Part shown: positions 795 to 58,865 of the stretch, in pieces
Layout of the letters: the number at the start of each line of letters is the position of its first letter
Numbering within the stretch: the stretch's first letter is position 1
From: Scenedesmus sp. PABB004
Lineage: Eukaryota
Direction of reading: 5' to 3'
Length of the DNA: 64,000 nucleotides
Assembly (NCBI GenBank): GCA_014905635.1
Contig: CM026547.1
Coordinates: forward strand, 62,001 to 126,000
Notes under the pieces: generated by a model
Seen by the model: only the letters and a program-made list of their open reading frames with translations
The model's database searches: none
Told to the model about the DNA's origin: nothing
Program-made: the position numbers and the translations under genes

Positions 795-3700
795 ATGTCG
801 GTGGTCGGCTTCGATGTGAGCGCCCGGCGGGGGCCGCTGGGCGCGGGGGCGAGCTGTCCTGCAGCAGGGAGCAGCAACCACGCCCAACTGCAGCCCAGCA
901 GCCCCGCCGGCGCGCGCGCGGCAGCGCCCTGGGCGGCGAGCCCGGCCAGCAGCGCCCGGCGGCGCCGGCGGCGCGCCCTCGCGCCCGGCAGCGCCGGCGG
1001 CGGCGCCGCAGCAGCGGCGGCCGCCGCCCCCAGGGCCCGCGCCGCGGGGCGGGCGCCGCGCCAGCGCGCGGGCGCTGCACCCGCAGCCGCTCCCGCCACG
1101 CCCACGCCCCCGCCGCCCCGCCCACGCCCACGCCCACGCCGCACGCGCCCCGCGCCCCGCGCGCCCGCGCGCCGGCAGGTCGGCAACGACTGCTCGTGCG
1201 TCGCGATCGCGCGCAAGCGCGGCATCGACGTGCTCATGAACAAGGAGAGCACGCGGGAGACGCCGGCGATGGTGTGCTTCGGCGACAAGATGCGCTTCCT
1301 CGGCACCGACGCGGCGGCCAAGGTCGGCATGAACCCGCGCGCGACGCCGCACCAGCTCAAGCGCCTGCTCGGCAAGCGCTGGGCAGACCCCGCGCTGCAG
1401 GCCGACGTCGCGCGGCTGCCGTTCAAGGTCGGGGAGGCCCCCGACGGCGGCGTGCTCGTGCACGTCACGTTTGGGGGCGAGCCCGCGTCGTTCACGCCGG
1501 AGCAGCTCGTCGCGATGGTGCTGACCGACCTCAAGAAGATTGCCGAGGCGGAGGCGGGCATCGCGGTCACCGACTGCGCGCTCAGCGTGCCCACCTTTTA
1601 CACGCAGGCCGAGCGCGCGGCGATGCTCGACGCCGCGGGCGTCGCGGGGCTCAACTGCCTGCGCCTCGTCAACGAGACGACCGCGACCGCGCTCGCGTAC
1701 GGCATCTTCAAGACCGACCTCCCTGAGACTGACCCCGTGCACGTGGGCTTCGTCGACGTCGGCCACGCGCACACGCAGGCGCGCGTTGGAGCGGCGGGGC
1801 GCCGGCGGCGGGCGCCGGCGGCGGAGCAGCGGCCGAGGCGGCAGCGGCGGGAGCGGCGGGAGCGGCAGTGGCGGTGGGAGTGGCGGGGGCGGCAGCAGCG
1901 GCGGCTGCTGCAGCGTCTCAAGCCCCGCGTGCGCGCGCGCCGCGCGCAGGTGTCGATCGTGTCGTTCCGCAAGGGCGGCCTGTCGGTGCGCTGCCACGCG
2001 TGGGACCGCGACCTCGGCGGCCGCGACATCGACGAGCTGCTGTTTGACCACTTTTGCAAGGAGTTTGCGGCCAAGTTCAAGATCGACGTCCGCAGCAACG
2101 CCAAGGCCTCGTTCAAGCTGCGCACACAGTGCGAGCGCCTCAAGAAGGTGCGTGCGGCGCCGCGCGCCACGTGCCACGCTGCTGCTGCGCGGCGGGCGCG
2201 CGGCCGGCGGCGCCGCGCCGCGCGCCCCGCGCCGCGCGCGCTCACGCCCGCTCCTCGCTCCCTGCTCCTGGCTGCGGCGCTGCGCAGGTGCTGTCTGCCA
2301 ACGCTGAGAGCCCCATCAACATAGAGTGCCTCATGGACGACGTCGACGTGCGCAGCCTGCTCAACCGCGAGCAGCTGGAGGAGATGGTCGAGCCCTTCCT
2401 CGCCCGCCTCAACGCAGTGCTGCGCGCCGCAGTGGAGGCGTCGGGTGAGCGCACGCGCGCACAGCGAGCGAGCCGCGGCGGCGGCGGCGCCGGCGGCGGC
2501 GGCGGCGGCGGCGCGACACCGCGTCGCGCCCGCCGCGCCCGCCGACCCCCCGCCGCCGCCGCCGCGCCCGTGCCGTGCCGCGTTGCGCAGGCCTGCAGCC
2601 GGGCGACATCAGCAGCGTGGAGGTGCTGGGCGGGTCGACGCGCGTGCCGGCGGTGTTCAAGCTCGTGGGCGACGTGTTTGGGCTCACGCCCAGCCGCACG
2701 CTCAACGCCAAGGAGGTGGTCAGCCGCGGCGCGGCGCTGCAGTGCGCGATGATCAGCCCCCTCATCAAGGCGCGGCGCGGGAGGGGGGCAGCGAGGGAGG
2801 GAGGCAGGGAGCGGGCAGCGCTGCCGGGGCGGTCGCGAGAGCGCAGCGCGCCGCGCCGCCGCTCCCCCTCGCTCACCTCCACGTTGCCCGCCCGCCCCCG
2901 TGCGTCCAGGTGCGCGAGTTTGACGTGCAGGACGCGGCGCCGTACGGCGTGACGCTGGCGTACGAGAACAAGGACGGCCAGCCCAAGACCGACGTGCTCT
3001 TCGCGCGCCACAGGCACGCGCGCCGCACGCAGCTCCCCCCCCCCTTCCCCTCCCGCGACGGCGGCGCGCCCTCGCTGCGCGCTCTGCGCGGCGCGCGCCC
3101 GCGCCACAACCCCCACACCGCCGCCCACCGCGTCCCCGCGCCCCCGCCCCGCCCCGCCTCTTGCAGCTTCTTCCCGAGCAAGAAGCTCATCACGCTCTTC
3201 AAGAGCGAGCCCTTCAGCGTGGAGCTCGCGTACGAGCCCGACGACCGCATCCCGCCCGCCTTCCCGCGCAGCCTCGGCACCTTTACCGTGCACCTGCCCA
3301 AGGCGCGCACACGCGCCCCGCGCGCACGCACACGCCCCACCGCCGCCCGGCCCGCGCGCCGGGCCTCCCGCCGCTGGCGCGCCGCCGCCGACGCGCCGCC
3401 GCCGACGCCCGCCCCGACGCCCGCCCCCGACGCCCACGCTGTGCCGCGCTGCCCGCCCACCCGCCGCGCTGCGCAGAGCGACGAGAAGAAGAAGGTGAAG
3501 CTCACGCTGAGCATGAACCTCCACGGCATGGCCAGCCTCGACAGCGCGGTGCTGCACGAGGAGGAGGAGGCCGACGAGGCGCTGCCCGTCACCGTCGCGC
3601 CGCCGCCCGCCGCCAACGGCGCGCCGCCGGCCGAGGGCGACGCGCCGATGGACGCAGAGGCGCCGCCGGCCGCGGGTGCGCCGCCGCGGGGCGCCGCCGC

Positions 3701-5093
3701 GGGGCGCCGCCGTGGGTGGCGCGGGCGCCGCGGCCTGCCCGCACACGCGCCCGCGCCCGCGTCCCCGCCGACGCCCCGCCCGCGCCCCGACGCTGCCGCG
3801 CGCAGACGGCGCGGCGCCGATGGACGCCGACGCGGCGGCGGGCCCGCCGCCGCCGCCGGCGCCCGCGGCCGAGAAGAAGGTCAAGGTCAAGAAGACGGCG
3901 CTGCGCGTGGACGCGGCGGGCGTGGCGGGCTGGGACGGGCCGCGGCGCAACGACATGTTTGAGGCCGAGTGCCAGATGGCGGCCGCGGACAAGCTGCAGG
4001 AGGACACGAACGAGGCGAAGAACGCGCTGGAGTCGTACATCTATGACCTCCGCGACCGCCTCTACGCCCGCCTCGCGCCCTTCGTGGCAGAGGTGCGCGC
4101 CGGGGCGCCGGGGCCGGGGCCGGGGCGGGGCGAGCGGCGGGGCGAGCGGCGGGGCGAGCGACGCGCGGCGAAGCCCCACGACGCGCGGCGCCCGCGCGGC
4201 GCGGCGCCCGGCCGACGCGCGCCGCGCCCGCGGCCGCAGGCGGAGCGCGAGGCGCTGAGCGCGCAGCTGAGCGCGATGGAGGACTGGCTGTACGGCGACG
4301 GCGAGGACGAGACCAAGAGCGCCTACGTGGCCAAGCTCGCGGAGCTGCGGGCCAAGGGCGACCCGATCGACGCGCGCGCGGCGGACGACGAGGCGCGCCC
4401 AGGCACGTCGTCGGCGCGGGGGCGCGGCGCGCGCGGCGCGGGGCTCGCGCGGTGCTCGCGCCGGACGCGGCTGCGCCGCCGCCGTGGCTCACGCGAGCGC
4501 CGCGGCCGCGCGCGCGCGCAGGTGCGGTGGAGGAGCTGCAGCGCATCGCGGGGCAGTACCTGAGCCTCGCCGACTCGACCCTGCCCGCGCACGCGCATCT
4601 CGAGGCGGGCGAGCGCGACACGCTGCGCAAGGAGGCCGGCGCCGCGCTGGAGTGGCTCAACGAGAAGGTCGCGCTGCAGGCGCAGGTGACCGGCGCTCTC
4701 GCCCTGCCCGCCCCGCGCGCGCTGCTCTCGCCCTAGGCTAGCTAGCCAGGCCCCCGCCGCGGCGCGCCCGTCGCGCACGCGTGCGCGCGCCCAACTGCCC
4801 GCCCGCCCGCCACCCCGCCCGCCACCCCCGCGCCGCAGCTGCACAAGTACGACGCGCCGCTGCTGAGCGTGGCGGACATCCACAAGAAGCGCGACGTCGT
4901 GGAGCGCGTGTGCAAGCCCATCGCCGCGCGGCCGCCGCCCAAGAAGGAGGCGCCGCCGCCGCCGCCCGCGCCCGCGCCCGCGGCGGAGCCCGCCGCGGGC
5001 GGCGAGCCCGCGGCCGCGGGCGGCGAGGCCGCGCCGGACGCCGCGCCGATGGAGGCGGAGGGCGGCGAGGGCGCGGCGCCGATGGAGCAGTGA
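795..5093 (+). CDS. HSP110/SSE-type Hsp70 family chaperone (cytosolic nucleotide-exchange factor), 12 exons
   Basis: Spliced translation MSVVGFD-VGNDCSCVAIARKRGIDVLMNKESTRETPA...LRLVNETTATALAYGIFKTDLP...DRDLGGRDIDELLF...EVLGGSTRVP...KNALESYIYDLRDRL...EDWLYGDGEDETK is diagnostic of HSP110. Introns: 816-1178, 1779-1949(GC), 2148-2287, 2445-2590, 2770-2909(GC), 3014-3166(GC), 3303-3476(GC), 3676-3805, 4093-4239, 4403-4521(GC), 4686-4838. Confidence 0.95.
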
Positions 5094-12598: not shown

Positions 12599-15500
12599 AT
12601 GCTGCGCGCCGGCCTGGCCGCGCTGGCGTGGCGCGGGCGCGCGCCGGCGGCGGCGGCGCTGCAGCAGCAGGCGGCGCGCTGCCTGGCCGCGGCCGCCGGC
12701 GGCGAGACAGCGGCGGGGGGCGCGCAGCCGCCGCGCGAGCAGCTGCGGTACGACCTCTGCATCGTGGGCGCGGGGCCAGCGGGGCTGACGGCGGCCATCC
12801 GCTTCAAGCAGGTGACGCCGCCGCGCGCCGACGAGGCCCCCGTGCGGCGGCCGTCCGGGCAGCGCGCGCCGCCGCCGCCTGACCGCGCCCGCCCGCCCCA
12901 CGCGCCGCGCAGCTGTGCGCGGAGGGCGAGAAGGACCTCAGCGTGTGCGTGCTCGAAAAGGGCTCGGAAGTCGGTGAGCGAGGCAGCCGCGCGGCGAGGG
13001 GCGCGCCGCGCCGGCGCCGGCGCCGCGGCGCCACGCACCGCGCCGCGCGCCGTGCAGGCGCGCACATCCTGAGCGGCAACGTCTTTGAGCCGACCGCGCT
13101 GGAGGAGCTGTACCCGGGCTGGCGCGCGAAGCAGGAGGCCGGCGAGGCGCCGTTTTCGGAGCTGCCGCTGCGGACGGGCGTCAGCGCCGACCGCTTCTAC
13201 ATGCTCACCCGCCGCGGCGCGTGGCGCCTGCCGGTGCCATCGCCGATGAAGGGCCGGGGCAAGAACTACGTGGCCAGCCTCAGGCGAGCGCAGGGCAGGG
13301 GCCGCGGAGCGCGCGCGCGCGCCCGCGCCGAGCACGGGGTGCCGCTGGCGCGCGCCCGCGCGGCCGGCGGCCGAGCCGCCGCCGCCGGTGCGCCGCCGCC
13401 GCCGCCGCAGCGAGCTTACGCGCTGGCTCGCGGCGCGGGCGGAGGAGGCCGGCGTGGACGTGTTCCCGGGCACGGCGGGGCGCGAGGTGCTGCACGACTG
13501 GCACAACGCGGTCGTGGGCGTGGCAACGGGCGACAAGGGCCGCGCGCGCGACGGCACGCCCAAGCCGGGCTTTGCGCCCGGCGTGGACGTGCTGGCCAAG
13601 CTCACGCTCTTCGCGGAGGGCGCGCGCGGCTCGCTCACGCAGGCGCGGCGCGGCGCCGGCGCGGTCGGGGTGGCCACTTCTGGCTCGCCGCGGGGGCTGC
13701 CGGCGACACCGCCGCCGCCGCCGCCGCTGCCGCCGCCGCCGCTGTGCCACTGCTGTGCCGCCGCCAGGGCTTGCTGTCCCACTATGGCCTGGTGGAGGCG
13801 GTGGGCGCGTGCCCGCAGACCTACGCGCTGGGCATCAAGGAGGTGTGGGAGGTGCCCGAGGCCGCGGCGCGGCCGGGGCTGGTGGTGCACACGGTCGGCT
13901 GGCCGCTCGACGCGGGGACCTACGGCGGCGGCTGGCTGTACCACATGGACGAGCGGTGAGGCGGCCTGGCGCTGTGTGGCTGTGGCTGTGTGTGTGTGTG
14001 GCTGTGTGTGTGTGTGGCTGTCTGGCGCTGTGTGGCTGTGTGTGTGGCTGTGTGAGAGAGAGCGCGTGTGCGAGCGGGCGTGGAGGCCTGCTGCGAGGCT
14101 GGGCGCGCGCCGACCGCCGGCCGCCGCCGCCGCGCGTGCCGCAGGCGCGTGTCGCTCGGCCTCGTGGTCGGCCTGGACTACTCGGACCCGGGGCTGAACC
14201 CTTACGAGGAGTTCCAGCAGTTCAAGCGCCACCCGCTCATCGCCGCGACGCTGGAGGGCGGGCGCTGCCTGCAGTACGGCGCGCGCACGCTCAACGAGGG
14301 TGCGCACCACGCGCGCCGCGCCGCGCCGCGCGCCCGGCCGCCCGCCCGCCCTCCGACGCGGGGGCGCTCGCCCGTGGGCGCACACCGCGCGCCTGCGCCC
14401 CACGCCGCGCCCCGCGCCGCGCGGCGCGCAGGCGGCGTGCAGTCCATCCCCAAGCTCGTCTTCCCCGGCGGCGCGCTCATCGGCTGCGCGGCGGGGTTCC
14501 TCAACGTGCCCAAGATCCGGGGCACCCACACCGCGATGAAGAGCGGCGCGCTGGCGGGCGAGGAGGCGTTCCGCGCGATCGTCCTCGCCGCGGAGCAGGG
14601 CAAGAAGGTGCGGGGGAGGGCGCGGCGCGCGGCGGCGTGCGGCGGCGGCGGCGGCGGCGGCGGCGGTTGAGAGCAGGCGCGCGCCGGGCGGCTGACGGCT
14701 GCGGCTGGCCGCGCCGGCGCGCGCAGGGCCCGCTGGTGCTGGACAACTATGCGGCGCGGCTGGAGGCGAGCTGGGTGCACGCGGAGCTCGAGCGCGGCCG
14801 CAACGTGCGGCCGGGCTTCAGGTGCGGCGCGCGCCCCGGGCGGCGGGGCCTGCAGGCACCCGTGCCAGGGCGCGCAGCACGGCGCTGACGCGTGCGCGCG
14901 GCGCCCGCCCGCCGCGCTGCGCCGCACGCAGCAAGTGGGGGCTGTGGGGCGGCCCTCGCCAACGCGGCGGTCACCACCTACCTCACGCGCGGCCGCGAGC
15001 CCTGGACGCTGCGGCACAGGTGCGGCGGCCGCGGCCTCCGCCGCCGCCAGGCCCGCCGCCGCCAGGCCCGCCGCCGCCCCGGCGGCCGCCGAGCTCTCAC
15101 GCCGCGCCCCGCTCGCGCGGCTTCGCTCGCGCGCAGACGGCCGGACCACGACGCGTTGCGCCTGGCGCGCGACTGCCCCGCGCGGGCCTACGCCAAGCCC
15201 GACGGCGTGACCACGTTTGACCTGCCCACCTCGCTCTACCGCTCCGGCACCAACCACGAGCACGACCAGCCGTGCCACCTGGTGCTGCGCAACCCGGGCC
15301 TGCCGGCGGTCGTCAACCTGCCGCACTATGGCGGCCCCGAGACGCGGTGCGCTGCGTGCACGCAAGGAGACGTGCCCTCAATGCGCGGCGGCCGCGCGGC
15401 CCGCCGCTGCCGCCCTCCTCACTGGCGCCGCCGCCGCGCCTGAAACCTGAACCCTGAACCCTGAACCCTGAACCCTGCCGGCTGCAGGTACTGCCCGGCC

Positions 15501-17642: not shown

Positions 17643-20600
17643 TCACTCGTCCTCGTCGCCCTCCTCCGGCACCGGCGTGGCGCGCCGCGATCGAGACCGG
17701 GCACGTGCCGAGCGACGCGGCCCGGCGCCGCTGCCGCCCGCGCCGCCGCTGCCGCCCGCGCCCCTGCTCGCCGCCGTGCCGCTGGCCTCGCCCTCGCCGC
17801 CGCCGTCGGCGCCGGGCTGCTGGCGCAGGCGGCGCGCGGCGGCGCGTGTGGTGACGCGCCGCGAGGTCGTGTGCGCGAGGCTGGCCAGGCCTGCCGCGGC
17901 GGCCGCCGGGATGTCCTGCGCGGCGGCGCGCGGCGCGGAAGCACTCAGCGCGCCGGCGGCGGCGTGGGTGCGGCGCGGCGCGACACGGCCGCGCGGCGCT
18001 CCCCTCCCCGCGCGAGCGCCTCACCAGCGACGCGACCGTGGCGAGCGCCGCCGACGACTGCCGCACCAGCTCCCCCGCGCCCGCCAGCACGCCGCCGGGC
18101 GCCGCCGCCCCGTCCGCAGCCGCTCGGGCGTCGCCGTCGGCTGGCGGCGCCGCCGCCGGCGCGCCAAACACAAACAAGCCCTGCCCGTGCGGCAGCTGCC
18201 ACGCAGCGGGCGGCCCGTCCCCGGCCGGCTGCCACGCCGCGGCCGCGGCCGCGGCCTGGCCCTCGCGCACGGCCGGCCACAGCCGGCCGGCGCGGTCCTG
18301 CTGGGCGGCGCCGTCGCCGGCGCGCTCCGCCGCGGCCGCGCCCGCCGCGGCGGCCGCCGCGGCGCTCGCGGCCGCGCGCTGCCCCGCCTCGCGCAGCGCC
18401 GCGGCGGTGGTGGCGGCCCAGTCCTCGATCGCGCGCGCGAGGTCGCCGTTGTACACCAGGCTCACGCTCGCCATGTTGAGCGGCGAGCCGGGGTTCTTGG
18501 GGTCGGTGCTGCGACACGCGGGCGCGGGCGGCGGCGCGGGCGCGCCGGCGGCGGCGTCGGCGGCGTCGGCGGCGGCAGCGCGGGCCCCTGCCCGCGCGTC
18601 GCTCCCCGTCCCCCGCTCCCTGCCCCCCGCGCGCGCGTGGCGCGCCTGTTGTCTGCGAGCCACGTCGCGATGGCCTCGCGGTCGTAGCTGCTGGGCGTGA
18701 CGGTGCCGTCGTGCAGCAGCAGCGCGGGCGCGCGCATGATGGCCTGCGTGATGGGGCACAGGAAGCCGCGCGGCACCGCAGCGACCGGCAGCTCGTCCAC
18801 CTCGGCCGGGATGTCCAGCGGCCCCGGCCACGGCCCCGGCGCCGACACGGGCGCCTGGCGCCGCTTCGCGCCGCGCTGCGCGCGGCGGCGGCGGCGGCGA
18901 CGGGAGGGGCGGCGGGAGGCGCGGCGGCGACGGCGGTGAGGGGGGCGCGCACGCGGGGTGCCGCCGTGCCGCGCCACCGCGCCTCGTGCGCGCCGCGCAC
19001 GCGCTCTCTCACCGCCGCGCCGCGCGCCGCGAGCACCGCGCGCGGGTCGAGCACGAGGCCGCGCGCCTCGCGCCAGAGCAGCGCCGCGAGGCGGTACGCG
19101 TGCATAAGGCCGCGCAGCTCGTAGGCGCACAAGTCGAAGCTCAGCCACCACAGCCAGCCCGCGGCGGCGGGCGCCGCGCCGAGGCCTGCTGTTGCGGCCT
19201 TGACGAGCGCGACGTCAAACGCGACGTCCAGCGCCGCGTAGCCCTGCGCGCGGCGCCCGGGGGCGCATGCGCGAGCGCGTGAGTTCCAAGGGAGGGGGCG
19301 CGTGCTCGGGCGGGCGCGGCGGGCGCGGCGCGGCGCGCTGGCGGCGCGGCGCGCGCACCAGGCTCTGCCAGAGGCCCAGCAGCATGCCCAGGAGCGTGAG
19401 CCCCGCGCCCGTCGCGCGCGCGAGCGCGCCGTGCCCCGCCAGCAGCGCGAGGCGGTGCGCGACCTTGTAGGCAACGCAGAGCAGGTACAGCCAGTTGCGC
19501 AGCACCGCCAGCAGCACTGCGCCGGCGCCGGCGGCGGCGGCGGCGGGGAGGGGGAGGGGGATCAGGGGGGAGCGCCGCGCGAGCGGCGCGCCTGCGACCG
19601 CCACCGCGCCCGCTGCCGCCCGCGCCCGCCGCGGCGCGGCCTCGCTCACGTATCGCGTACACCACCAGCACCTCCCACTCAAACTCCAGCTCCAGCGGCG
19701 CCAGCGCGGCCAGCAGCGGCGACAGCGCGCCGAGGCCCGCGGTCGGCACGACCCGCGCACCCCACGCCGGCGCGCGCGCCGCGAGCGCGCGGCCGAGCGC
19801 CGCGCCGCGCGCGAGCAGGCGCGCCGCGGGGCCCGCCTGCGCCGCGGCCCCCGCCCTGCCGCCGCACTGGGGCTGCTGCGCAGGGGCGGGCGGGGCGCGC
19901 GCCGCGGCGCCGCGCCGCCGCGCTGGCGGCGGCAGCGGCCCCGGCACGACCGCAAACGTGCCGACCACGCGGCCGGGGTCGGCGCGGCGCGCGACGGCGC
20001 ACACGACCACGTCGGCGGGGCGCAGCGTCGTGCCGTTGACGGGCGCGCTGCACGTCGCGACCCAGCGCGACGGCCGGGCGGCGGCGCCGTCGGGCGTGAG
20101 CGCAGGCACGCCCGCCGCGAGCAGGGCGAGGCTGTCGCGCAGTCCCGGCGGCATCACGCGCCACGAGTCGGGCACCGCGAGCAGCCGGCCCGCCCAGAAG
20201 ACCGCCCAGGGGCTGCGCGCTGTGATGAGCAGCTCCTGCCACGCCGCCCAGCCATCGGCGGGGTGCGCCGCCATCAGCACCGCCGCGCTGCGCCAGAGCG
20301 AGAGCGGGCCCGCGGTAAACTCGCGCGCGGCCGTGTCGTAGCCCATGGCGCCCTGCAGCCGCGCCAGCAGGCGGCTGCTGGCGTAGACGGGCGACGCTGC
20401 GGCGGCGCGGGGCGGCGCGCCCGTGAGCGGGCGCACCGCGCCGCGCCGCGCAGCGCGCTGCCCGCCGCGGCGCCCCGCCGCCGCCGCCGCCGCTGCATTC
20501 TCACTCGAGCCCGCCCATGCGGGCGCGAAGACCGCCTCTGCGGTGGCCTCATCGTGCGCGGGGTACGGCACGCGGCGCAGCAGCTCGCCGCAGAGCGCGA

Positions 20601-22101: not shown

Positions 22102-22135
<34 letters not shown>

Positions 22136-23425: not shown

Positions 23426-23723
23426 GGCTCTTCCCACTGCCGCAGGCTGCCAGGGAGATCGGGGAGCGTGGCGCCGGGGCGTTGTTGGCCCGGCGCGCGC
23501 GCCTGGCACAGGCCGGCCCCACCGCGCACTCCCGGCGTGTGATACAGGTGTCGATCTAGCTCTGCGAGTGGCCGCGGAGTGTCAGGGCCGCGGTTCAGGC
23601 CCGGAACCGCGCGTCGCGCGACGCTGTCGAAAACGCCGCCGCACGCCGGAGCCCGCCACTGCGCCCAGCACCGCCCATTGGCGCGCCACTGCCGGCGCCC
23701 GCTGCCGAGCTCGACGCCAGGTC

Positions 23724-28146: not shown

Positions 28147-32005
<3,859 letters not shown>

Positions 32006-35636: not shown

Positions 35637-35673
<37 letters not shown>

Positions 35674-43729: not shown

Positions 43730-46371
43730 ATGCCGGCTCTGCCGGCAGGCGGCCGCTGCCGCTGCGGCGGCGCGCTGGGCGGCGGTGCGGACGCCGGCGC
43801 CCGACCGCTCGCCCCTGGCGCCCTGGCGGCCTCCCGCGCGCGGCAGCCGTCGGTGGCAGCCCACGCGCTGCTGGCCCACGCCTGCGGCTGCGGCGGCGCA
43901 GCGCGGGGAGCAGCAGCGGCCGGCGGCAGCACGGCACCGCTGCCGCCGCATGCTGCCTGGGCGCCGCAGCGGACGGCCGCCAGCGGGCGGGGCGGCGTGC
44001 GCGCCGCCGCGGCGCTGACGGAGCGGGAGCTGACCATCAAGCTCTCCATCGCCTCGAGCACGGGTGCGGCCGCGGCGGCGGCAGTCGCCACGGCCGCCAC
44101 GGCCAGCCGCGCGGCGGCACGCTCGCGCTCACGCGCGCTCCGGCCGCGGCGCAGACCGGCTGGACCTGTCGGGCTGCGACCTGGCGGAGGTGCCGGAGGC
44201 CGTGTTTGAGCTCACTGGCCTGGTGGAGCTGTCGCTCGCGGGCAATCAGCTCACGGCGCTGCCGTCCGCCGTCTCGCGCCTCACCAACCTGCGCCGCCTC
44301 GTCGTCGCGGGCAACTGGCTGCAGCACCTCCCGCCAGAGCTGTGGGAGCTGGCCGGCCTCGAGGGCCTCTGGCTGCACGGGAACCTGCTGGAGGACCTGC
44401 CCCCGCAGTTGGGGCAGCTCGCGCAGCTGCGCGCGCTCTCGCTCGCGGGTGCGGCGCAGCGCCGCGGCGTGGCTGCTCGCCGCCGCTCGCCGCTGCTCGC
44501 CGTTGCTTGCCGTTGCTTGCCGCCGCTGCCGCAGCCTGCAGCCATTGCCGCCGCCGCCGACACGGCCGCACCCGCCGGGCTGCCGCCGCGCAGGCAACTG
44601 CCTGGCCGCGGTGCCGGACAGCCTGAGCCAGCTGGTGCACCTTGCCGACCTGAACCTCAGCGGCAATGCGCTGACCGCGCTGCCGGCCGGCATCAGCGCG
44701 CTCACGGGGCTCACCATGCTCAGCCTGCACGGCAACGCGCTCGATGCGCTGCCGCCGGCCGGCTGGGGCACGCTCGGCGCGCTCGTCGAGGTCACGCTGC
44801 AGGGCAACCGCCTCACCGAGCTGCCCGACAGCTTCGCGCAGCTCACGGTGACGCGCACCGCGCCGCGCCGCGCCGCGCCGGCGCGCGCCGGCTCACCGCC
44901 GCCGCCCGCCCGCCGCCGCCGCGCGCCGCAGGCGCTGACGGAGCTGTCGATCGCCGACAACCGCATCGCGCGCCTGCCGGACGACCTCAGCGCGTGGCGG
45001 CGGCTCGCCAAGTTCCACGCCTACGGCAACGCGCTCACGCAGCTGCCGCTCGGCCCGCGCGGCCTGCCCGCGCTGCTGCCGCCCGCGCCGGCGCCGCGCG
45101 ACGAACGCGCCGCGCGGTCCGCGCCGGCCGGCGGCGGCGCGACGAACACGGGCAGCTGGGACGAGCCCGAGGGCGGCCGCGGCGCGGGCGTCGTGCGCAG
45201 CGTCGACGGCGACGACGGCGCCGGCGGCGGCGACGCCGGCGGCGGCCGGCTGGTGAGCCTGTGGCTCGAGGGCAACCCGCTGCAGGAGGCCTGCGTGGCG
45301 GCGCTGGTCGGCGCCATGGCGCCGCGCGGCACGACGCGGCTCGGCCTCGACCAGCGCCAGCTCGTCGGCGCGGCGCGCGCCGCGGCGGACGCGCTGCGCG
45401 ACGCCGGCAGCATGTCGGTGCGCGCGGGCGTGGTGGAGGGGGCGGGCCCCGGATACTTCAAGCTCCAGCCCGGCCCGCCCGGCCCGCCCGGATGCGAGCG
45501 CGTGCTCGTCGTCGCGTTTGGCAGCGCGCCGGGGCTGCCCAACTGGGGCGGCGTGATGCGCCTGGTCGCGGCAGCGGCGGAGGCGCCCGAGCAGCGGTGC
45601 AGCGCGCGGCGCGGCGCGGCGCACGCGCCCGCGCCAGCGGCGAGGCCCGCCGCCCGCGTCACTCCGCTCCGCCCCGCCCGCGCCCCGCCGCCCTGCCCCG
45701 CCGCCGCGCCGCGCCGCGCCTCGGGTGCAGGGCGTTTGACGTGCTGTATGTGGTCGACCCCTGCCGCACGTGGTACCACGGCGGCGACCCCGCCGCGATG
45801 GCGGAGACGTACGGGCGCCGCCTGTCCGCCGTCACGGGCCGCTACCGGCACGTCGTCATGGTCGGGGACAGCATGGGCGCGACCGGGGCGCTGCTCTTCG
45901 CGCCGCTCGCGACGTCGGTGCTCGCGTTCTGCCCCCAGGCGCGCCGCTGCGCCGCGCGGCCAGGACGGGACGGGCGGCGCGGCGCCGGCGGGCGCGCGCC
46001 GGCGGCGCCTGTCATCGCCCAAGCTTGCCGCGCGCCCGCCCGCCGCCGTGCAGGTGGACCTCGCGACGTCGTCGATCCGCCCCGGCCGGCCGCGCGCCTG
46101 GCAGGCGGCGCTGCAGGCGTCGCTGCAGGCGTCGCTGTCGGGCAGCACGGCGCGCGTGCGCGTGTTCACGGGCACCTGGCAGCACGACGTGGACCAGGCC
46201 AACCTGCTGGCGCACCACCCGCGGCTGAGCATCAAGGTGTATGGCGTCGAGTCGCACCGCCTCGCGCTCGCGCTCGCGCGGCAGCGCAAGCTCGCGCCGC
46301 TCATACGCGAGGCCGTGCTGGGCGAGCTCGGCCTGCCGAGCGGCAACATTAGGCTGGCCAACCTTCTTTAG
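43730..46371 (+). CDS. Leucine-rich-repeat protein fused to a C-terminal alpha/beta-hydrolase-like domain, 6 exons
   Basis: About 10 LRRs (LxxLxLxGNxLxxLP), then VLVVAFGSAPGLPNWGG...FDVLYVVDP..WY...VVMVGDSMGATGALLFA...VLAFCPQ...HDVDQA...ESHRLA. Introns: 44064-44154, 44449-44593, 44848-44931, 45597-45730, 45939-46053(GC). Start uncertain. Confidence 0.85.
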
Positions 46372-46634: not shown

Positions 46635-49125
46635 ATGCTGCGTGCCGCGTTGGCGCGCTCCAGCAGCACGTTTAGGGCTCTGGGCTCGCTGCGAGCGGGC
46701 GCGGGCGTCAGGGGCGTGCCTTTCGGCGCCCTGCCGGCTGCGTGGCAGCGAGCAAAGCGCTCGCTCCACCAGCGCGGCGCCGCCGCCCCGGGCGCGGGTG
46801 CCGCTGCCGACGTCATGGACATCACGCACCTGTGCGTCCAGCTCGCGTGATTGGGGTGGACAGCTGCGGCGGCGCTGCCGCCCGCGGCCGCGCCGCCAGC
46901 GCGCGCCGTGGCCGCTGCCGACGCCCCGCGCGCTGCCGACGCCCCGCCGACCCCCGCAGGACGCAGGCCGAGGCGGTGGCGGTTGACGAGGAGCTCATGG
47001 GGCCGCTGGGCTTCAGCGTGGACCAGCTCATGGAGCTGGCAGGCCTCAGCGTCGCGGTCAGCCTGGCAAGAGAGTACCCGGCCGCAACCCACGGCCGCGT
47101 GCTCGTGCTGGCGGGGCCGGGCAACAACGGCGGCGACGGCCTCGTCGCGGCGCGGCACCTCACGCACTTTGGGTACGCGGTCACGGTCTGCTACCCCAAG
47201 CCCACGCCGCGGCCCCTCTACGACGGCCTCGTCACGCAGTGCCGGGCCCTGGGCGTGCCGTTTGTGGGCGTGGACGAACTCGCCGCAGGCGGCGTGGCGG
47301 GCGTGGCCGACGTCGTGCTCGACGCGCTCTTCGGGTTCTCCTTCCGCGGCCCGCCACGCGCGCCCTTCGACGCGCTGCTGCAGGCGCGCGCCCCGCGCCG
47401 CCGCGGCGCGCGAGCGGCAGCCGCCGCGCGCGGCCGCCGCCGCGCCCGCGCCTCCCGCCGCGCGCGCGAGCGGCGGTCTCGCACTGCTCTCCGCCGCAGA
47501 TGCTCGCGCCCGCCGCGGCGCCGCCGCCGGTGGTGTCGGTCGACATCCCGTCGGGGTGGGACGTCGAGGCGGGCCCGGGGGACGCGCCCGGCGCGCTCGC
47601 GCCAGACATGCTCGTCTCGCTCACCGCGCCAAAGCTCGCGGCGCGGTTCTTTGCCGGCCGGCACCACTACCTCGGCGGCCGGTGCGTGGTGTGCCCTGGA
47701 GGGGGGGGGCAGCGGGACGTCGTGCCGCCCCGCAGCGGCAGGCGGCCGCGGCTCACGCGCCTCACACGACCCGCCACCGCCGCCGCCTCCGTGCCGCTGC
47801 CTCCAGGTTTGTGCCGCCCGCGATCCGCGACAAGTACCGCCTGCGCCTGCCGCCCTTCCCCGGCACGGACCAGTGCGTGCGCCTGCCCGCGCGCGGCGCC
47901 GCGGCGGCGGCCGAGGCGGCCTCCGCGCCCGTGGCTGCGGGTGCGGCTGCGGCTGCGGGTGCGCCCCCGAGCCCCGCCGACATGCGTGTGAGCTACGAGC
48001 TGCACGGCCTGCTGGAGGGCGAGGCCGCGGCCGACCCGGTGGAGCAGTTCCGCGCCTGGTTTGCCGCGGCGGTCGAGTCCAAGGCGCGGCGGGGGCGCGG
48101 CGGCCTGCGCCCGCACGCGCGCCGCGCGGCGGTGCGCCCCCAGCCGGCCCGCGCGCCCACTGGCCCGCGCGCACCCCCCGCGCCGCCCGCGCGCCGCCAG
48201 GTGTGCGAGGAGCCCAACGCGATGGCGGTCGCCAGCGTGGGCGCCTCGGGCGCGCCGAGCCTGCGCTACGTGCTGCTCAAGGGCTTTGATGAGCGCGGCT
48301 TTGTCTTTTACACCAACTACGACTCACGCAAGGGCCGGGTGCGTGCGAGCGGCGGGGCCGCGGCCGCGGCCCACGCGCGCACGCGGCGCGCCGCGCGCCC
48401 AGGCCGGGCCGCGGCCGCGGCCGCGGCCGCGGCGCGCGACGCAGCGCGCGCGCGCCGCCCGCAGGAGCTCGCGGCGAGCGGCCGCGCGGCGCTCGCGTTC
48501 TGGTGGGAGGGCCTGCAGCGGCAGGTGCGCGGCACGCCGCGCGCCGCGGCGCGCCCCGCCCCGCCGCGCCGTGCGGCAGCCCCGCGCTGCGCGGCGAGCG
48601 TGGCGCGCCGCGCTCTCCTATTGCCCCGTCCCGCCCCAGGTGCGCGTGGAGGGCCTGGTCGAGCGCGTGCCCGAGGCCGAGGCGACCGCCTACTTTGACA
48701 GCCGGCCGCGCGGCAGCCAGATCGGCGCGTGGGTCAGCCTGCAGAGCCAGGCCGTATTCGGCGGGCGGCGCGAGATCGAGGCCAGGCGCGCTGCCGCTGC
48801 GGCGCGGGCGGGGGCGCGCGCTGTGAGGGGGCGGGGACGCGGGGCTTGGCAGCCGCGCGTGCGCTGAGCGCCTCGCCGCCGCCGACGCCGGCGGCGCCGG
48901 CGCCGCGCTCGTCCCGCTCGCGCGCGCAGGCAGGCTGAGCTGGAGGCGCGGTACGCCGACGCGTCGCTGCCCGTGCCGCGGCCGCCGCACTGGGGTGGCT
49001 ACCTGGTGCGCCCGCTGGCGGTCGAGTTCTGGCAGGGCCGCCCCAGCCGGCTGCACGACCGCCTGGTCTACACGCGCCCGAGCGTGGACAGCGCCGACTG
49101 GGCGCTGCAGCGCCTCTACCCCTGA
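46635..49125 (+). CDS. PDX3: Bifunctional NAD(P)HX epimerase (YjeF_N) / pyridoxine-pyridoxamine 5'-phosphate oxidase, 8 exons
   Basis: [69 protein letters not shown]; then [74 protein letters not shown] donors at 47384, 48084 and 48786. Confidence 0.95.
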
Positions 49126-49557: not shown

Positions 49558-51158
49558 TCACGCCAGGCTGGCGTGCGTTGACACGCCGGTCAGGGCCGTC
49601 GCGAGCTCCCAGAGCTCCGCGCCGCGCCGCGGGTCTCGCGCGTCGGCGTCCGGCCGGGCGAGGCTGTCGTTGTGCAGGTAGCGCCCCGCGACGCGGCCCG
49701 CCGGCGCGGTCGCGGCGCGCAGCATGCTGTCCGCGCTGCGCTCGGGCGTGCGCAGCACGAGCGGGTAGAGCGCGGCCAGCAGCGGGTCCAGCACGTGCGC
49801 GAGCCCTGGCAGCGCGCCGCTGCCGGTCTGGCGGAAGAACCCAGTCGCGAGCGCGGTGTGCACGATGCCGGGGTGGATCGCGACCGCGCTGTCGGCGCCC
49901 CAGCGCCCGGCGTTGCGGTCGAAGCGGCGCTGGAACTCGAGCGCCATGGCGGTGTTGGCGAGCTTGCTGAAGGCGTAGCTGGTGAACGGGTTGTACGCCA
50001 ACAGCGACTGGTGCAGCGGCGGCCGGCGGCGGCGGCGGCGGCGGCAGCGCCCGTTGCGCGGCGCGCGCGCCGCCCAGGGGCCGCGCGCGCCGCGCCCGCC
50101 GCGCTGCCCTGCGCCCGAGCGCCGGGGGCGCCGCGGCCCGTGTGGCGCACCTGCTTGTCCGCCCACTGCAGCTTGCCGGCGGGGTGCGTGAGCGACGAGA
50201 GCATCACCAGGCGCGTGCCCCCGCTGTCGGCACCGCAGCCGCGCTTGGCCGCCTTAGCGCGGCGGCGGCGCTGCTCGGCGAGAAGCTCGTGCGCGAGGAG
50301 CCAGTGGCTCAGGAAGTTGACCTGCGCAGAGGGGGGAGGGGCCTGCTGAGCGTGCCAAAGGGACGCCGGTGCGCCCCGCCCGCTTGGCCTGGACGCCCCG
50401 CGCCGCCGCGCCGCCGGCCCCACCTGGAACTGCATCTCCAGCCCGTCCTCAGACTCCTGGCGCGTGGCGGGGCTCATGATGCCTGGCGTGCGGCACGGGA
50501 GGTCCCCGGGCGCGGCGGGCGAGAGCGGCGCGGCGCAGGCGTCTCTGAGTGCGGCGCCCGCTTCGCGCGCCGCGTCCGCGCCGGCGGGCGAGCACCGGCC
50601 CCGGCGCACCCGCGTTGCAGATGAGGACGTCGAGGCGGCGCCCCCGCGCGTTGAAGGACCGCGCAAACGCCCGCACGTCGGCAAGGGACGCGAGGTCGAG
50701 CCGCGCAAACTCGACGCGCCCGCGGCCGCACCCCGGCAGCGGCGGCACGTCCGCCAGCACCTGCGCGCGCCCGCGGCGGCGCGGGGCGCCGGCGGCGGCG
50801 GCGCCGTCACGCGCGGGCCGCGTGTGGCGCGCGCCGCGCAGCCCGGCGTCCCGCCCCGCCCCGCCGCGCGCGCCGGCGCCGCGCGCGCCTTTGCCGCCGC
50901 GAGGCCGCGCTCGCGGCTGCGGCACGCGAGCACCACGGTCGCGCCGCGCTCCGCCAGCTTGCGCGCGGTGGCGAAGCCGATGCCGGCGTTGCCGCCGGTC
51001 ACGATCGCGAGGCGGCCGTCGAGCGGCGCGTCCAGCTCGGCCGCGTGCTGCCGGCGGCGCGGCAGGCCCAGGTGGTCCGCCACGTTGATCGCGACGTTCT
51101 CCAGGCTGTCCAGCGCGCCCGCGCCCACCGCCTGCGCCAGGGGCAGCAGGCGGTCCAT
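49558..51158 (-). CDS. Short-chain dehydrogenase/reductase (retinol dehydrogenase / WWOX-like), 5 exons
   Basis: [58 protein letters not shown], catalytic [13 protein letters not shown]. Introns: 50761-50888(GC), 50483-50609, 50322-50423, 50008-50150. Confidence 0.93.
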
Positions 51159-53413: not shown

Positions 53414-56400
53414 ATGTCGCGGGCAGCCCTCGCGGCCGCGCTCCTGGCGCTGGCGTGCGCGGCCTGCGCGGCCGCGTCGGGCATCCCCGCCGCGCCCATC
53501 GCGCCCACGCGCAGCCGCATCCGCGCGCGCTCCACGCCGCGCGAGGCGGCGGCCGGCGCCGCCGCGGCGCCGGGTGCTGCTGCGGCCAAGGCCGCCCCGC
53601 GCCCGCTGATCGTCGCCTCGGCGTCTGCCGGACGCGCGCGCGTCACAGAGGACATGCCGGCAGGTGTGAGGCGGCGGCGCGCGCGGGGAGTACCGCAGCG
53701 CGCCATCAGCATCCGACCGCCTCCTCCCCACGCCCGCCCGGGCCGCACGACCGCCCCGCAGGCACGCCGCTGCCCGGCGAGTTCATCGTCGTCTTCGCGC
53801 CCGACGTCATCGACCACGAGGCCGCCGTCGCAGAGTGCGGCGGCAGCGCTGCGGCCTGGCTGCCGCCCAGCCCGGCGGCGCACACGCTCAATCCCCCGTC
53901 GTTGCCCGCGCCCTGCCCCGCGCTGCCGCACAGCTCCCACGCGCGCGTCTCGCAGGCGGTGGCGGCCGCGCGCGCGTCGGGCGGCGGCGCGGCCGCCAGC
54001 CCCGCCGGCGCAGCGGCCGCCACTGCGGGCGTCGCGGTCGTGTCCTCCTCGGCCGCGCCGCCCGGCGTGCCCAGCACCGCGGTGCTGCGCGTGCTCGAGC
54101 TGAGCGTGGCCGAGGTGCGCGCGGCGCTGGCCGCGTCGCCACACGTGGAGGGCGTCGTCTCCAACCGCGTCGTGTCGGTCGCGCAGCCTGGCCGTGAGTG
54201 CCGCAGCGCGCGCGCGGCTGCGGCCGGCCGCTGCGGCGCCCCGGGGGCTGCGCTGGCGGATCCGCCAGCGCGCCCCAGCTCCGGAGCTGGGGCGCGCGCG
54301 CGGCGCGCGCCGACGCTCGCTGCCGCATGCAGGCGGGTGCCACGCGCCGCACTTTGCGTCGGGCGTGCGCGCCGACCCCGCGTCGGGCATCACGCTAACC
54401 TGGGCCGGCTGCCTCACCGCCGACACGCGGCTCGCGGTCTTTGGCGAGCGCTGCGGCGCGGCACTCGACAGGTTCAGGTGCGCGCCGCGCGGCGCGCGCC
54501 GACGGCGGGCGGCGCGCGTTGGCGGCGGCGCCGAGCAGGGGCTGCGTCCTGGGCAGGCGCGCGAGCGCGCGCCGGGGCCGCCGCCGCGCCCGCGCCGCGC
54601 TGCTCGAGCCTTGCCGCACGCGCTGCGCCCGCAGGTGGAAGGGCGTGTATGCGTACAACCCCACGACGGGGCAGATGGTCGGCGACTGCGTGCACCTGCG
54701 CGCGGACGAGCCGAGCGCGGCGCGCGCGGCCGCGCTGTTTGGCGACTGCGGCGTGCCGCCCACTTACTTCCCGGGGCTGCCCGTCGCGGTGTGCGGGGAG
54801 GACGCAGGCACCGCGTGCGTTGACCTCGGGGCGCTGGACAAGTACGAGGTCACCCTCACCGCGGCGGCGTGCGAGGGCGGCGGCAAGGCCGCGACGTACC
54901 GCGGCGCGCCGTGCGGCCCGCGCGGCGCGCTGGTGCAGTGGGACAGCCTCTCCGCGGCGGGCTGCCACGCCGTGCACCGCGCGGCGGTCGACGCCAAGAG
55001 CCAGAGCGACTGGATCGGCGAGTGCGGCGTGCCGCCGCTGCAGGTCGCGGGCGTGCCCACGCGCGTGTGCGGGCGCGTGCCCGCCGAGGGCGACGCGCCG
55101 GCGGCGCCGGCGCCGCCGCCGCCGGAGGCCAGCCCGGCGCCGCCCGGCGACGGCGGCGGCGACGGCGGCGACGGCGAGGGCGACGGTGAGGGTGAGGACA
55201 ACGCGCCGCCGCCGCTCGGCGACGTGACGCCACTGCCGCGCGAGGCGCTGGAGAGCGGCGAGAAGCCCAACTGGGGCGTCGCGCGCGTGGGCGCGTCGCT
55301 CGGCGGCACCGTGGTGGACGCGGCCGCCGCGGCCGCGGCGACGGGCTTCAAGGTGGCGGTGCTGGACACGGGTGCGCGCCCCCCGCCCCGCGTGCTGAGC
55401 GCGCGCTGAGCGCGCTGAGCGTGCGCTGAGCGCCTCGCGCCGTACCCCGCCCCGCCCCAGGCGTCGACGTGGGGCACGGCGACCTCAACGTCGTGGAGTT
55501 TGTCGACTTTGTCGACGCGCCGGGCACAGACTACCACGGCCGCGACGGCAACGGGCACGGCACGCACTGTGCGGGCATCGTGGGCGCGCGCAACAACGGC
55601 TACGGCATGACCGGCGTCGTGCCGGGGATGCCCCTCCTCGCGCTAAAGGCGCGCGCGCAGGGGCAGCTAGCTAACTAGGGCCGCGGACGGCGCGGGGCGC
55701 AGGGGGCAAGGGGGCGTCGGGGACCCCCTCCTTGGCCCTGCACCTGGCCCCACACGCGCGCGCGCTCGCCGCCCCGCCCCGCCCCGCCCCGCCGCCCCCG
55801 CCGCCGCCTGTGTCTCGCCGCCGCCGCCCCGCAGGTGCTGCCCAAGGACGGGTCTGGGCCGCTCGACCCCATCTACGCCGCGTACCAGGACGTGCTGGCG
55901 CGCCTCGCGGCGGGCGAGAAGATCGTCGCCGTCTCGCTCTCGCTGTCGAGCCAGTCGAGCGACCCCGAGGACCACCGGGTCGAGTGCGCCTGGGCGGCGC
56001 GCATGGCGGCCGGCGGCACCGCCGTCGTCGCGGCGGCGGGCAACGACGGCGAGCCGCTCGACGCCAACCTGCCCGCGTCGTGCGCGGACGCGCTGACCGT
56101 CACGTCAACGACCAGCAGCGACGGCGGCAGCAGCTTCAGCAACTACCTTGACGCCGGCGGCGCGCTGCGCAAGCAGGGCAGCCTGATCGCCGCCCCCGGC
56201 AGCAGCATATACAGCACCTACGCCGGTGGCGGCTACACGACGCTCAGCGGCACGAGGTGCGTGAAGGGGCGCGCGCGCGCCGCGCCAGGCCCCAAACCCG
56301 CGCCAGGCCCCGCGCCGCCGACGTTGAGCCGCGCCGCCGCCGCGCCGCGCCGCGCCGCGCCGCGCCGCCGCAGCATGGCGACGCCGTTTGTCTCGGGCGG

Positions 56401-57446: not shown

Positions 57447-58865
57447 ATGGCCACTGGCGGCTGGGGCGGCGCGTACAGCAACCCGTTTGCGGGCCAGGCC
57501 GGCGGCGCGGCGGCGGAGGCGGCCGCCGCGGACAAGGCGCCGGGCGGCGCGTACGGCGCCTGGAGCGGCGCCGCCGCGGGCGCCGTGCCGGCGTCGGCCG
57601 CCGCCTCGGCGCCGCCCGTGCCGCCCGTGATGGGCGGTGCGTTTGGCGGCGCCGGGGCGGCGCCGCCGACATGGGCGGCCGCGAGGCGGCGCTCGCGCGC
57701 CGCGAGGCCGACCTCGCGCGCCGCGAGGCCGCGCTGGCCGCCGCGGGCGCGAGCGGCGTCATCCGGGTGCGCACGCACGCCTCCTCGACCCCCCGCCGCC
57801 GCCGCCATCCCTCGCGCCCCATGCTGCGCGCGGTGCGGGCCTTGCCCACGCGCGTTGTCGCCTCTGCCCCGCAGAACTGGCCGTCGTGCTGCCCCGTGAT
57901 CTACCACAGTATCCGCGAGCAGGTGCCGGCGTGGAACCGCAGCATGGTGCGCTTCACCTACCTCGTCGAGCTGCTCAGCCTGGCGGGGTTCTTCTTCAAC
58001 GCGCTCGTCCTCCTCGCCGCGCTGCTCGCCGGCACGGGCCCGCTCCTGCAGGCGCGGCCGCGGCCGCGCCCGCAGCGCCTGCCGCGCCCGCGCCCGCCGC
58101 CGCGCCTCACCTGCGCCCGCGACCGCGCCTCACCTGCCCCCCCCCCCCCACGCACGCACGCACACACACACGCGCACACACCCACACACAGAGCTGGTTC
58201 CTGTCCATCATTGCGCTCGTGCTGGGCGTGCCGCTGAGCTGGCTGCTCTTCTACAAGGGCGTCTTCAACGCCGCCAAGACCGACGGCGCGACCTACACCT
58301 ACATCCGCGTCATGCTCACCACGCTGCTGCACTTTGCGTGGTGCGTGTGGATGGTGCTCGCGCTGCAGCGCCTCGGCGACTTCTCCGCGGGTGCGGCGAC
58401 GTGCGGGGCAGCGGCGCGGGGCAGCGGCGCGGGGCAGCGGCGCGGGGCAGCGGCGCGGGCGCCGCCGGCGCGCACGTCGCGCGCGTGGGCTCACCGCCCC
58501 CATCCCTCTCCCAAACACACACACACACACACACCACACGCCCGCCGCCGCCGCCGCCAGGCATCTTCCCCATGCTCCGCCAGTTTCAGCGCGGCGACGC
58601 CAAGGGCATCGCGTTTGGCATCCTCTACATCATCAACATCGCCATCTGGGGCCTCGCAGCGGGCGGCTGCTGGTGCGGCGCCGCGCGGCGCGGCCGGCCG
58701 GCGGCTGCGCCTGCGGCCGCCGCGGCGTGACGCCGGCGACGCCCCCGCCCGCGCGCGCGCAGGCTGGTGCTGGGCCTGGCGGTCGCGGCGTACCGCCGCG
58801 GCGACGGCCCGCGCCGCGAGTACGAGGCGCGCATGGGCGGCGTGCAGCTGGGCGCGGCGGTGTGA
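57447..58865 (+). CDS. SCAMP: Secretory carrier membrane protein (SCAMP), 5 exons; apparent 1-nt deletion near 57655
   Basis: N-terminal NPF, coiled coil REAALARREADLARRE, NWPSCCPVIYHSI, GVPLSWLLFYKGVFNA (E-peptide), four TM helices. Introns: 57767-57874, 58052-58191(GC), 58391-58560, 58673-58762. Confidence 0.9.
58403..58458 (+). repeat. 13-bp tandem repeat (GCGGGGCAGCGGC) x4 in a SCAMP intron
   Basis: Read directly. Confidence 0.8.

Follow-up and report, generated by a model that had tools for sequence, protein, structure and literature searches.

Genes and base composition of the window

This study concerns a stretch of 64,000 nucleotides (nt) from the green alga Scenedesmus sp. PABB004 (assembly GCA_014905635.1, contig CM026547.1, positions 62,001 to 126,000 of the forward strand; here called the window) and the introns in it that begin with GC and end with AG (GC-AG introns) alongside the usual GT-AG introns. 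The window has 597 open reading frames (ORFs) that run from stop to stop over at least 50 amino acids (aa), and a search of 596 of them against Pfam found pieces of about 17 recognizable nuclear genes on both strands. They encode an Hsp110-type HSP70, a cytochrome P450, a sugar transporter, an ETF-ubiquinone oxidoreductase (ETF-QO), Ycf54, a U-box protein, HMG-CoA synthase, PsbP, a TPT-family transporter, an organellar-type glutamyl-tRNA synthetase (GluRS), an inositol-trisphosphate kinase, an LRR protein, a YjeF_N-PNPOx fusion, a short-chain dehydrogenase, a subtilase, SCAMP, and TSSC4. Every gene was broken into many ORF pieces, in line with short exons, and the intron density was about one per 500 to 700 bp of gene. 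The long first exon of the HSP70 gene was 100% identical to a deposited 820-aa protein, "HSP70-14 [Scenedesmus sp. PABB004]" (P0001), and 88% identical to Tetradesmus obliquus.

The G+C content of the window was 79.3% and was even along its length (0.778 to 0.810 per 4 kb). The PABB004 genome is listed as 39.8 Mb with 78.5% G+C and 7,092 genes, and its relatives have about 57% G+C (PMC12571836). The mapped introns were richer in G+C (0.855 to 0.88) than the whole window (0.79), and A and T were concentrated in exon codon positions; among codons, TAC, AAG, ATC, and TTC had the highest coding log-odds.

A sequence-only reading of the window had proposed 23 GC donors, all in the context AG:GC(G/A)(C/A)G (the colon marks the exon-intron border). 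This motif was present at all 23 positions on the strand given, and the proposed donor types were confirmed as well, with 19 GCGCG, 3 GCACG (3014, 4403, and 27023), and 1 GCGAG (13284). The heptamer AGGC[GA][CA]G occurs 112 times in the window on both strands; because it is so common, the claim for GC donors rests on the gene models. GC dinucleotides (27,288 on both strands) are about six times as frequent as GT dinucleotides (4,698).

Homology mapping of introns in four genes

Gapped tblastn extended straight through introns in this DNA because reading frames stay open at 79% G+C. Homologues were therefore fetched with single-exon queries, which gave 11 to 14 independent homologues per gene, P0001 being excluded from these. 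They were aligned with a purpose-written protein-to-DNA aligner, whose intron state was blind to splice signals and allowed any dinucleotide and all three phases at a constant penalty. After alignment, all equal-scoring border shifts were listed and checked for G[TC]...AG.

Four genes were mapped in this way. The HSP70 gene (HSP70-14/Hsp110; 11 homologues) had 5 GC-AG and 6 GT-AG introns, the conserved part of the PNPOx gene (13 homologues) had 3 and 3, the TPT-family transporter gene (14 homologues) had 3 and 3, and the organellar GluRS gene (12 homologues) had 2 and 7. The total was 13 GC-AG and 19 GT-AG introns, and 13 of the 23 proposed donors were covered. At each of the 13 GC introns, the sole G[TC]...AG choice among the equal-scoring borders was GC-AG. 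Exact-border support ranged from 2 of 11 homologues (3303) to 14 of 14 (26374 and 27023), and the borders given by the other homologues lay a few bases away, in no case on a GT-AG pair. The GC-AG introns were 88 to 174 nt long with a G+C content of 0.88, versus 115 to 363 nt and 0.855 for the GT-AG introns; the acceptor (C/G)CAG was common to both, and no visible difference set the two classes apart in length or composition.

Further evidence came from P0001, which mapped onto the window letter for letter only when 5 of its 11 introns were taken as GC-AG. An alignment of 23 HSP70 sequences, from Scenedesmaceae to land plants, was gapless at all five GC junctions, and none of the 22 homologues had an insertion there. 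For the TPT-family gene, a metagenome scan gave 80 loci, all uninterrupted, with 51 to 67% identity. Ten of these, uninterrupted marine-metagenome ORFs that are independent of any splice model, reproduced the three GC-AG borders exactly in 10, 9, and 2 of 10 cases.

Alternative borders were compared by taking, for each of the 32 introns, every GT-AG or GC-AG pair that kept the frame, left no stop, and lay no more than 60 nt from either border. The resulting peptides were scored against the matching segments of 9 to 14 homologues by summed BLOSUM62. The consensus intron model was best in 32 of 32 cases. GC-AG borders exceeded the best GT-AG alternative by 130 to 1,078 units at the 13 GC introns, and intron 47384 had no in-frame GT-AG candidate within 60 nt. 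Conversely, the best GC-AG alternative lost at all 19 GT introns, by 38 to 278 units. None of the GT-AG alternatives within 60 nt of these 13 introns reached the score of the GC-AG pair. Among all 23 GC introns, 15 have lengths that are not multiples of 3, so their retention would destroy the downstream reading frame; the other 8 are multiples of 3.

Gene finder recovery of the other ten donors

A gene finder was trained on the 32 verified introns and the 5,922 nt of verified coding sequence, in which no frameshifts and no stops were seen. It scored codons by log-odds relative to intron triplets, used one donor matrix for GT and another for GC, required an AG acceptor scored by its own matrix, and set the prior for GC donors explicitly. 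In leave-one-gene-out runs, in which the GC prior was varied between 0.5 and 0.001, 30 to 32 of the 32 verified introns were recovered. All 13 verified GC introns were recovered even at the lowest priors; thus, frame and coding potential alone demand GC donors. When the gene finder was run on per-gene intervals (14 further ones, GC prior 0.05), all 10 remaining donors were recovered, and forbidding them lowered the score by 3.7 (50888) to 13.6 (13284) nats. Parses restricted to GT donors scored lower in every gene with a proposed GC donor, for example falling from 720 to 647 for HSP70 and from 390 to 353 for P450. The proposal that GC donors are needed to restore conserved proteins was accordingly supported by homology for 13 donors and mainly by the gene finder for 10.

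Pfam profile coordinates were continuous within about 2 positions across several of these junctions (P450, 393 and 395; PsbP, 76 and 77; SCAMP, 56 and 57; S8, about 87 on both sides). At SCAMP, an acceptor region of the ACACAC type made the acceptor matrix miss the intron at first. An intron at 57978 to 58075, obtained at an acceptor threshold of 0 and missing the donor 58052, was dropped after inspection, and the relaxed threshold gave 58052 to 58191. Position 58191 is the sole AG between 58090 and 58200. The sole GT between 58001 and 58110, at 58007, would delete 15 residues. All 23 GC-AG introns are listed in Table 1.

Two further predictions, both unconfirmed by homologues, were left uncounted. 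One is a GC-AG intron at 31891 to 32220 on the minus strand in the part of GluRS that is probably an N-terminal transit peptide (score loss, 4.4), and the other is a GT-AG intron at 47873 to 47971 on the plus strand in the PNPOx linker (score loss, 7.1).

Table 1. Predicted GC-AG introns of the window, with the evidence for each. Fractions give the homologues that support the exact border; paired values are summed BLOSUM62 scores of the GC-AG model and of its best GT-AG alternative; score losses (nats) are from the gene finder with the donor forbidden. Donors other than GCGCG are given in brackets.
Gene and intron	Positions	Strand	Evidence
HSP70-14 (Hsp110-type), intron 2	1779..1949	+	10/11; required by P0001
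HSP70-14, intron 5	2770..2909	+	11/11; 1548 vs 470; length 140, frame-shifting if kept
HSP70-14, intron 6 (GCACG)	3014..3166	+	6/11, rest within a few nt; 1031 vs 479; required by P0001
HSP70-14, intron 7	3303..3476	+	2/11, poorly conserved stretch; 919 vs 720; required by P0001; recovered in leave-one-out
HSP70-14, intron 10 (GCACG)	4403..4521	+	4/11; 935 vs 480; length 119, frame-shifting if kept
Cytochrome P450	6637..6850	-	Score loss 12.3; flanks match Pfam p450 325-393 and 395-453; length 214, frame-shifting
ETF-QO (GCGAG)	13284..13410	+	Flanks match pig 2gmh_A 78-140(143) and (145)146-220, one split codon between; score loss 13.6
ETF-QO	13643..13767	+	Score loss 8.0; PDB alignment continuous within 2 residues, variable loop
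U-box protein	18509..18645	-	Score loss 6.0; Pfam U-box match stops two codons short of the donor, at 18651
PsbP family	24371..24501	+	Score loss 8.0; Pfam PsbP 27-76 and 77-134 on flanking exons
TPT family, intron 1	25526..25684	+	13/14, metagenome ORFs 10/10; 4088 vs 3505
TPT family, intron 4	26374..26461	+	14/14, metagenome ORFs 9/10; 2118 vs 1782
TPT family, intron 6 (GCACG)	27023..27183	+	14/14, metagenome ORFs 2/10; 1962 vs 1397
Organellar-type GluRS	29275..29428	-	10/12; 1305 vs 993
GluRS	30462..30592	-	5/12; 549 vs 321
Gene without Pfam match	38524..38673	+	Gene finder only, score loss 12.3-12.6
LRR protein	45939..46053	+	Gene finder only, score loss 5.3
YjeF_N-PNPOx fusion	47384..47499	+	6/13, 4 more within 3 nt
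PNPOx	48084..48200	+	3/13, most others within 6 nt; 1244 vs 1066
PNPOx	48786..48929	+	5/13; 1334 vs 1070
Short-chain dehydrogenase	50761..50888	-	Pfam adh_short match ends exactly at 50889; score loss 3.7
Subtilase (S8)	55649..55834	+	Score loss 10.8; both flanks extrapolate to S8 profile position ~87
SCAMP	58052..58191	+	Score loss 11.6; Pfam SCAMP 2-56 and 57-120 on flanks

Frequency of GC-AG introns

For the frequency estimate, a high-confidence set was assembled from the 32 homology-verified introns and those gene-finder introns that had a score loss of at least 4 and two flanking exons of at least 40 nt, a cut that was set after the leave-one-out results had been seen. These gene-finder introns numbered 45 in the 14 intervals and 8 in two further genes, so the whole set held 85 introns. 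Left out were 45 low-confidence predictions (27 GT and 18 GC, mostly with tiny exons at gene ends) and 5 extra predictions in verified genes, one of them the GC donor at 32220. The set contained 22 GC and 63 GT donors, corresponding to 26% GC-AG. In the 16 genes that had not been chosen for GC donors, 9 of 53 introns (17%) were GC-AG. Hence, GC-AG introns make up approximately 17 to 26% of the confidently mapped introns in the window, and the earlier count of 23 in about 109 (21%) lies between these values.

Sequence context of GC and GT donors

The context of the donors was compared in the same 85 introns by the Fisher test. GC donors occurred only after an exon-end AG and with G at position +5. 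An A at -2 was found in 22/22 GC donors and 24/63 GT donors (p = 8.6e-8), and AG at -2/-1 was found in 22/22 and 21/63 (p = 1.2e-8), with G at -1 in all 22 GC donors. G at +5 (22/22 versus 57/63, p = 0.33) and a purine at +3 (22/22, with 19 G and 3 A, versus 62/63, p = 1) did not separate the two classes. C at +4 was found in 21/22 GC donors versus 45/63 GT donors (p = 0.019), and A at +4 in 1/22 versus 16/63 (p = 0.059). Among donors preceded by AG, 22 of 43 were GC and 21 were GT; among the 42 donors without AG, none was GC. Three features described in the sequence-only reading were reproduced here, namely that roughly half of the AG-preceded donors are GC, that GT donors often lack the exonic AG, and that the GC donors are not compensated by A at +3 and +4.

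In these genes, the GT donors have the form (A)G:GTG(C/A)G, mostly GTGCG. Apart from +2, the GC donors are near this consensus for introns of the major spliceosome (U2-type introns), and it is the exon end, rather than +3/+4, that supplies their compensating strength.

At some acceptors, (CA)n or ACACAC tracts lie just 5' of the AG (58140 to 58191 and 26100 to 26160, plus strand), unlike the usual GC-rich (C/G)CAG region.

Proposed origin of the GC donors

Judged by protein homology and reading frame, the GC-AG introns are real, and in the gene models GC-AG borders alone were shown to restore the conserved proteins and their frames. The reading that we favor, at a probability of roughly 0.8, is that these are ordinary U2-type introns with C instead of T at +2 in a green alga of extreme G+C content. 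In intron interiors, C/(C+T) was 0.88; therefore, a neutral pyrimidine site would be C about 7 times in 8. A strong substitution bias toward G and C would keep turning T into C at +2. Such a C would survive only where A at -2, G at -1, G at +1, and G at +5 leave enough pairing with U1 and, later, with U5/U6. In a strong context of this kind, the choice between T and C would be nearly neutral, and about half of such donors would be GC; in a weak context, selection would remove C, as the 0 of 42 GC donors without AG would reflect. If a simple equilibrium is assumed, the data suggest weak selection for T in strong contexts and strong selection elsewhere. From what is known of pairing between U1 and the donor, an exon-end AG is expected if the pair at +2 is lost. 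The earlier suggestions that C at +2 is tolerated once the exon end pairs well with U1, and that G+C pressure is the driver, fit the strict need for AG (22/22 versus 21/63) and the C/(C+T) of 0.88, respectively; G+C content is also named as the cause in the papers on Emiliania huxleyi and the pelagophytes discussed below. The data require no special splicing machinery.

We consider it unlikely that the donor code itself departs from the textbook, with C at +2 needing AG, G at +5, and nearly always C at +4, and no A at +3/+4. In a first version of this idea, U1 or U6 (or U1C/LUC7) may have co-evolved with the 80% G+C genome. In a second version, +2 may be nearly neutral in strong contexts, where 22 GC and 21 GT donors were observed against a neutral ratio of about 7:1; under simple assumptions, selection would then be only weak, with 4Nes around -2. 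The missing A at +4 among GC donors may result from the same G+C bias or from U1, U6, or their proteins reading +4 differently.

Several points weigh against the reading as ordinary U2-type introns, or narrow it. The evidence for splicing itself consists of proteins and reading frames, and the frequencies cover the 64-kb window only. The four genes used for homology mapping were chosen for holding most of the proposed GC donors, which inflates their GC-AG share of 41%. Ten of the 23 donors depend mainly on a gene finder that was trained on the other 13; two of them, 38524 and 45939, had no homology support beside the gene finder, and 50888, with a score loss of 3.7, fell under the high-confidence cut. 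The closest margin was at 1779 (1800 versus 1670), where a GT 6 nt downstream adds 2 aa that are absent from all homologues. The idea of compensation predicts A at +3/+4, and at +4 the opposite was found, so the pairing rule may differ or G+C bias may be at work. Finally, AGGCGCG occurred twice inside verified exons, versus 3.1 expected, and neither copy is used as a donor; the donor heptamer alone is insufficient for splicing, and exons do not avoid it.

Alternative explanations

A changed spliceosome, in which a variant U1 5' end, U1C/LUC7, or U6 ACAGA box reads C at +2/+4 as well as or better than the standard bases, would make the high GC-AG share a matter of co-evolved machinery rather than tolerance. 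It is compatible with the favored explanation, and we regard it as quite improbable. It would account for GC donors without A at +3/+4 and with C at +4 in 21/22 cases (GT donors, 45/63; A at +4, 1/22 versus 16/63). It would also fit the GT donors, which are mostly GTGCG and match the textbook U1 5' end poorly. A precedent is the U1 isoform variant proposed for GA donors in a copepod (PMC7072748). Conversely, standard U1 pairing would lead one to expect the absolute need for an exonic AG (22/22), and C at +4 may be G+C bias on a weakly selected site. An Rfam scan of the 64-kb window gave no match at the gathering score and no small nuclear RNA gene.

There is very little chance that the GC-AG borders are an artifact of gene modeling, with the true introns using nearby GT donors or the segments being retained coding insertions. 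Such an artifact is conceivable in this DNA, because the sixfold excess of GC over GT places a GC near almost any border, 8 of the 23 introns could be retained without a change of frame, and a GT does lie 6 nt downstream of 1779. However, an alignment that was blind to splice signals never picked GT-AG at the 13 tested sites and chose GT at 19 of 19 GT introns by the same method, and the best GT-AG alternative was always lower (or, for 47384, nonexistent within 60 nt). Retention would shift the frame in 15 of 23 cases, none of the 22 HSP70 homologues carried an insertion at the junctions, and the uninterrupted metagenome ORFs aligned collinearly over the TPT junctions. This protein-level evidence largely refutes an artifact for the 13 introns tested by homology.

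Still less likely is that the donors are really GT and that assembly or polishing of this GC-rich sequence miscalled the T at +2 as C. Extreme G+C content is generally hard on sequencing chemistry, but 23 errors would be needed at one position of the splice signal and only after AG, while 21 AG:GT donors stayed intact and 5,922 nt of verified coding sequence held no frameshift or stop. The U12 donor box is :ATCC, and introns of the minor spliceosome (U12-type) have nothing in their favor beyond the non-GT start; direct reading of the sequence refutes them, since all 23 donors are GC(G/A)(C/A)G, and we know of no described class of U12-type introns with GC starts.

Other features of the window

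Several observations do not bear on the donors. A Pfam "NAD-GH" (PF10712) match (1.2e-23) at 717 to 2315 on the minus strand lies antisense to the real Hsp70 coding exon; it is most likely a spurious antisense family match and no gene. An HMG-CoA synthase gene occupies 20825 to 23721 on the minus strand, with HMG_CoA_synt_N at 3.6e-38 and C-terminal pieces in the Pfam scan; to our knowledge, chlorophyte green algae are usually said to be without the mevalonate pathway. PNPOx (46676 to 49122, plus strand) is a pyridoxamine-phosphate oxidase that carries a YjeF_N (NAD(P)H-hydrate epimerase) domain at its N-terminus, and the same fusion was present in the retrieved plant and algal homologues.

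Significance

Gene finders that expect GT would mis-model a large share of the genes in this and similar GC-rich algae. With 17 to 26% GC-AG introns and 6 to 11 introns per gene, most genes would carry at least one. For the PNPOx fusion and the TPT-family gene (25391 to 27300, plus strand), no 100%-identical deposited protein was found among the matches listed in the length ranges searched; the public annotation of 7,092 genes may be missing or mis-modeling genes, perhaps partly through GC donors. As reported previously, the first gene models of E. huxleyi suffered from missed GC donors (PMC4028052).

If the reading as U2-type introns shaped by G+C bias is true, this alga would represent the third independent lineage, after a haptophyte and the pelagophytes, in which extreme G+C content has moved the 5' splice site from GT toward GC. 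If the donor code differs, the window would show the highest GC-AG use seen so far in the green lineage and, whichever version applies, the third independent instance of splice signals reshaped by G+C content. With the relatives of 57% G+C as a comparison, one could measure how strongly +2 is selected and how far this depends on the AG at the exon end. No new kind of splicing or splicing principle is implied.

Comparison with known systems

The GC-AG introns of animals and plants have the consensus AG:GCAAGT. Those of the window resemble them in their GC...AG ends, in the probable use of the major spliceosome, and in an otherwise strong donor. They differ in having C at +4 in 21/22 cases with no enrichment of A at +3/+4, and in a frequency that is 15 to 25 times higher, since GC-AG introns account for about 1% of introns in plants, animals, and fungi (PMC6310983, PMC7072748).

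The closest precedent is the haptophyte E. huxleyi (65% G+C), in which 56 to 65% of donors were GC, as verified by reverse transcription-PCR and RNA sequencing (Feldmesser et al. 2014, BMC Genomics 15:148, PMC4028052). The authors considered high genomic G+C the probable cause, found that ab initio annotation under-called GC donors, and reported high intron retention (PMC4028052). Both are GC-rich algae in which GC donors form a large share and the acceptor is still AG; here, however, the host is a green alga with 79% G+C and 17 to 26% GC donors. Among pelagophytes, 14 to 17% of introns in Aureococcus anophagefferens and about 14% in Pelagomonas calceolata were predicted to be GC-AG, which was ascribed to high G+C content, and a relative of lower G+C had 0.32% (bioRxiv 10.1101/2024.10.30.620910). 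That share is of the same order of magnitude as ours. Pelagophytes, in contrast, are intron-poor stramenopiles with 0.1 to 0.9 introns per gene, compared with about one intron per 500 to 700 bp of gene here, and the passage on their GC-AG introns gives no donor-context rule (bioRxiv 10.1101/2024.10.30.620910).

Within the green lineage, a 2018 plant survey covers a few GC-rich algae, in which "major non-canonical" junctions numbered 173/2044 (8.5%) in Ostreococcus tauri, 8057/114347 (7.0%) in Micractinium conductrix, 7090/124435 (5.7%) in Chlorella sorokiniana, and 496/8831 (5.6%) in Micromonas pusilla (PMC6310983, supplementary table 6). These shares are raised, yet all fall well short of that in the present window; the column counts AT-AC junctions together with GC-AG ones and varies with the annotation behind each genome. 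The passages of the survey used here do not single out these four species (PMC6310983). The sequence-only reading had pointed to reports of elevated GC-AG use in Monoraphidium neglectum; two sources do not bear this out, as 19 of 67,746 junctions were major non-canonical in the survey table (PMC6310983) and the genome paper contains neither "GC-AG" nor "donor." Its remark that the phenomenon may not be wholly new does hold, with E. huxleyi and the pelagophytes rather than Monoraphidium as precedents; overall, that interpretation is partly supported. A more distant parallel is the copepod Eurytemora affinis, with GA/GG donors at about 10% or more of introns (PMC5714493, PMC7072748). It shares a lineage-wide shift to non-GT donors, with a U1 isoform variant proposed as the enabler; it differs in the dinucleotide, and the copepod shift is not linked to G+C content.

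The literature searches made here found no publication describing abundant GC-AG introns for Scenedesmus or strain PABB004, and the comparative paper that lists the PABB004 genome (PMC12571836) contains neither "intron" nor "splice"; the deposited P0001 already embodies five GC-AG introns. The abundance of GC-AG introns reported here is not new in kind, being known from other GC-rich algae outside the green lineage, and it is probably the strongest case so far within that lineage.

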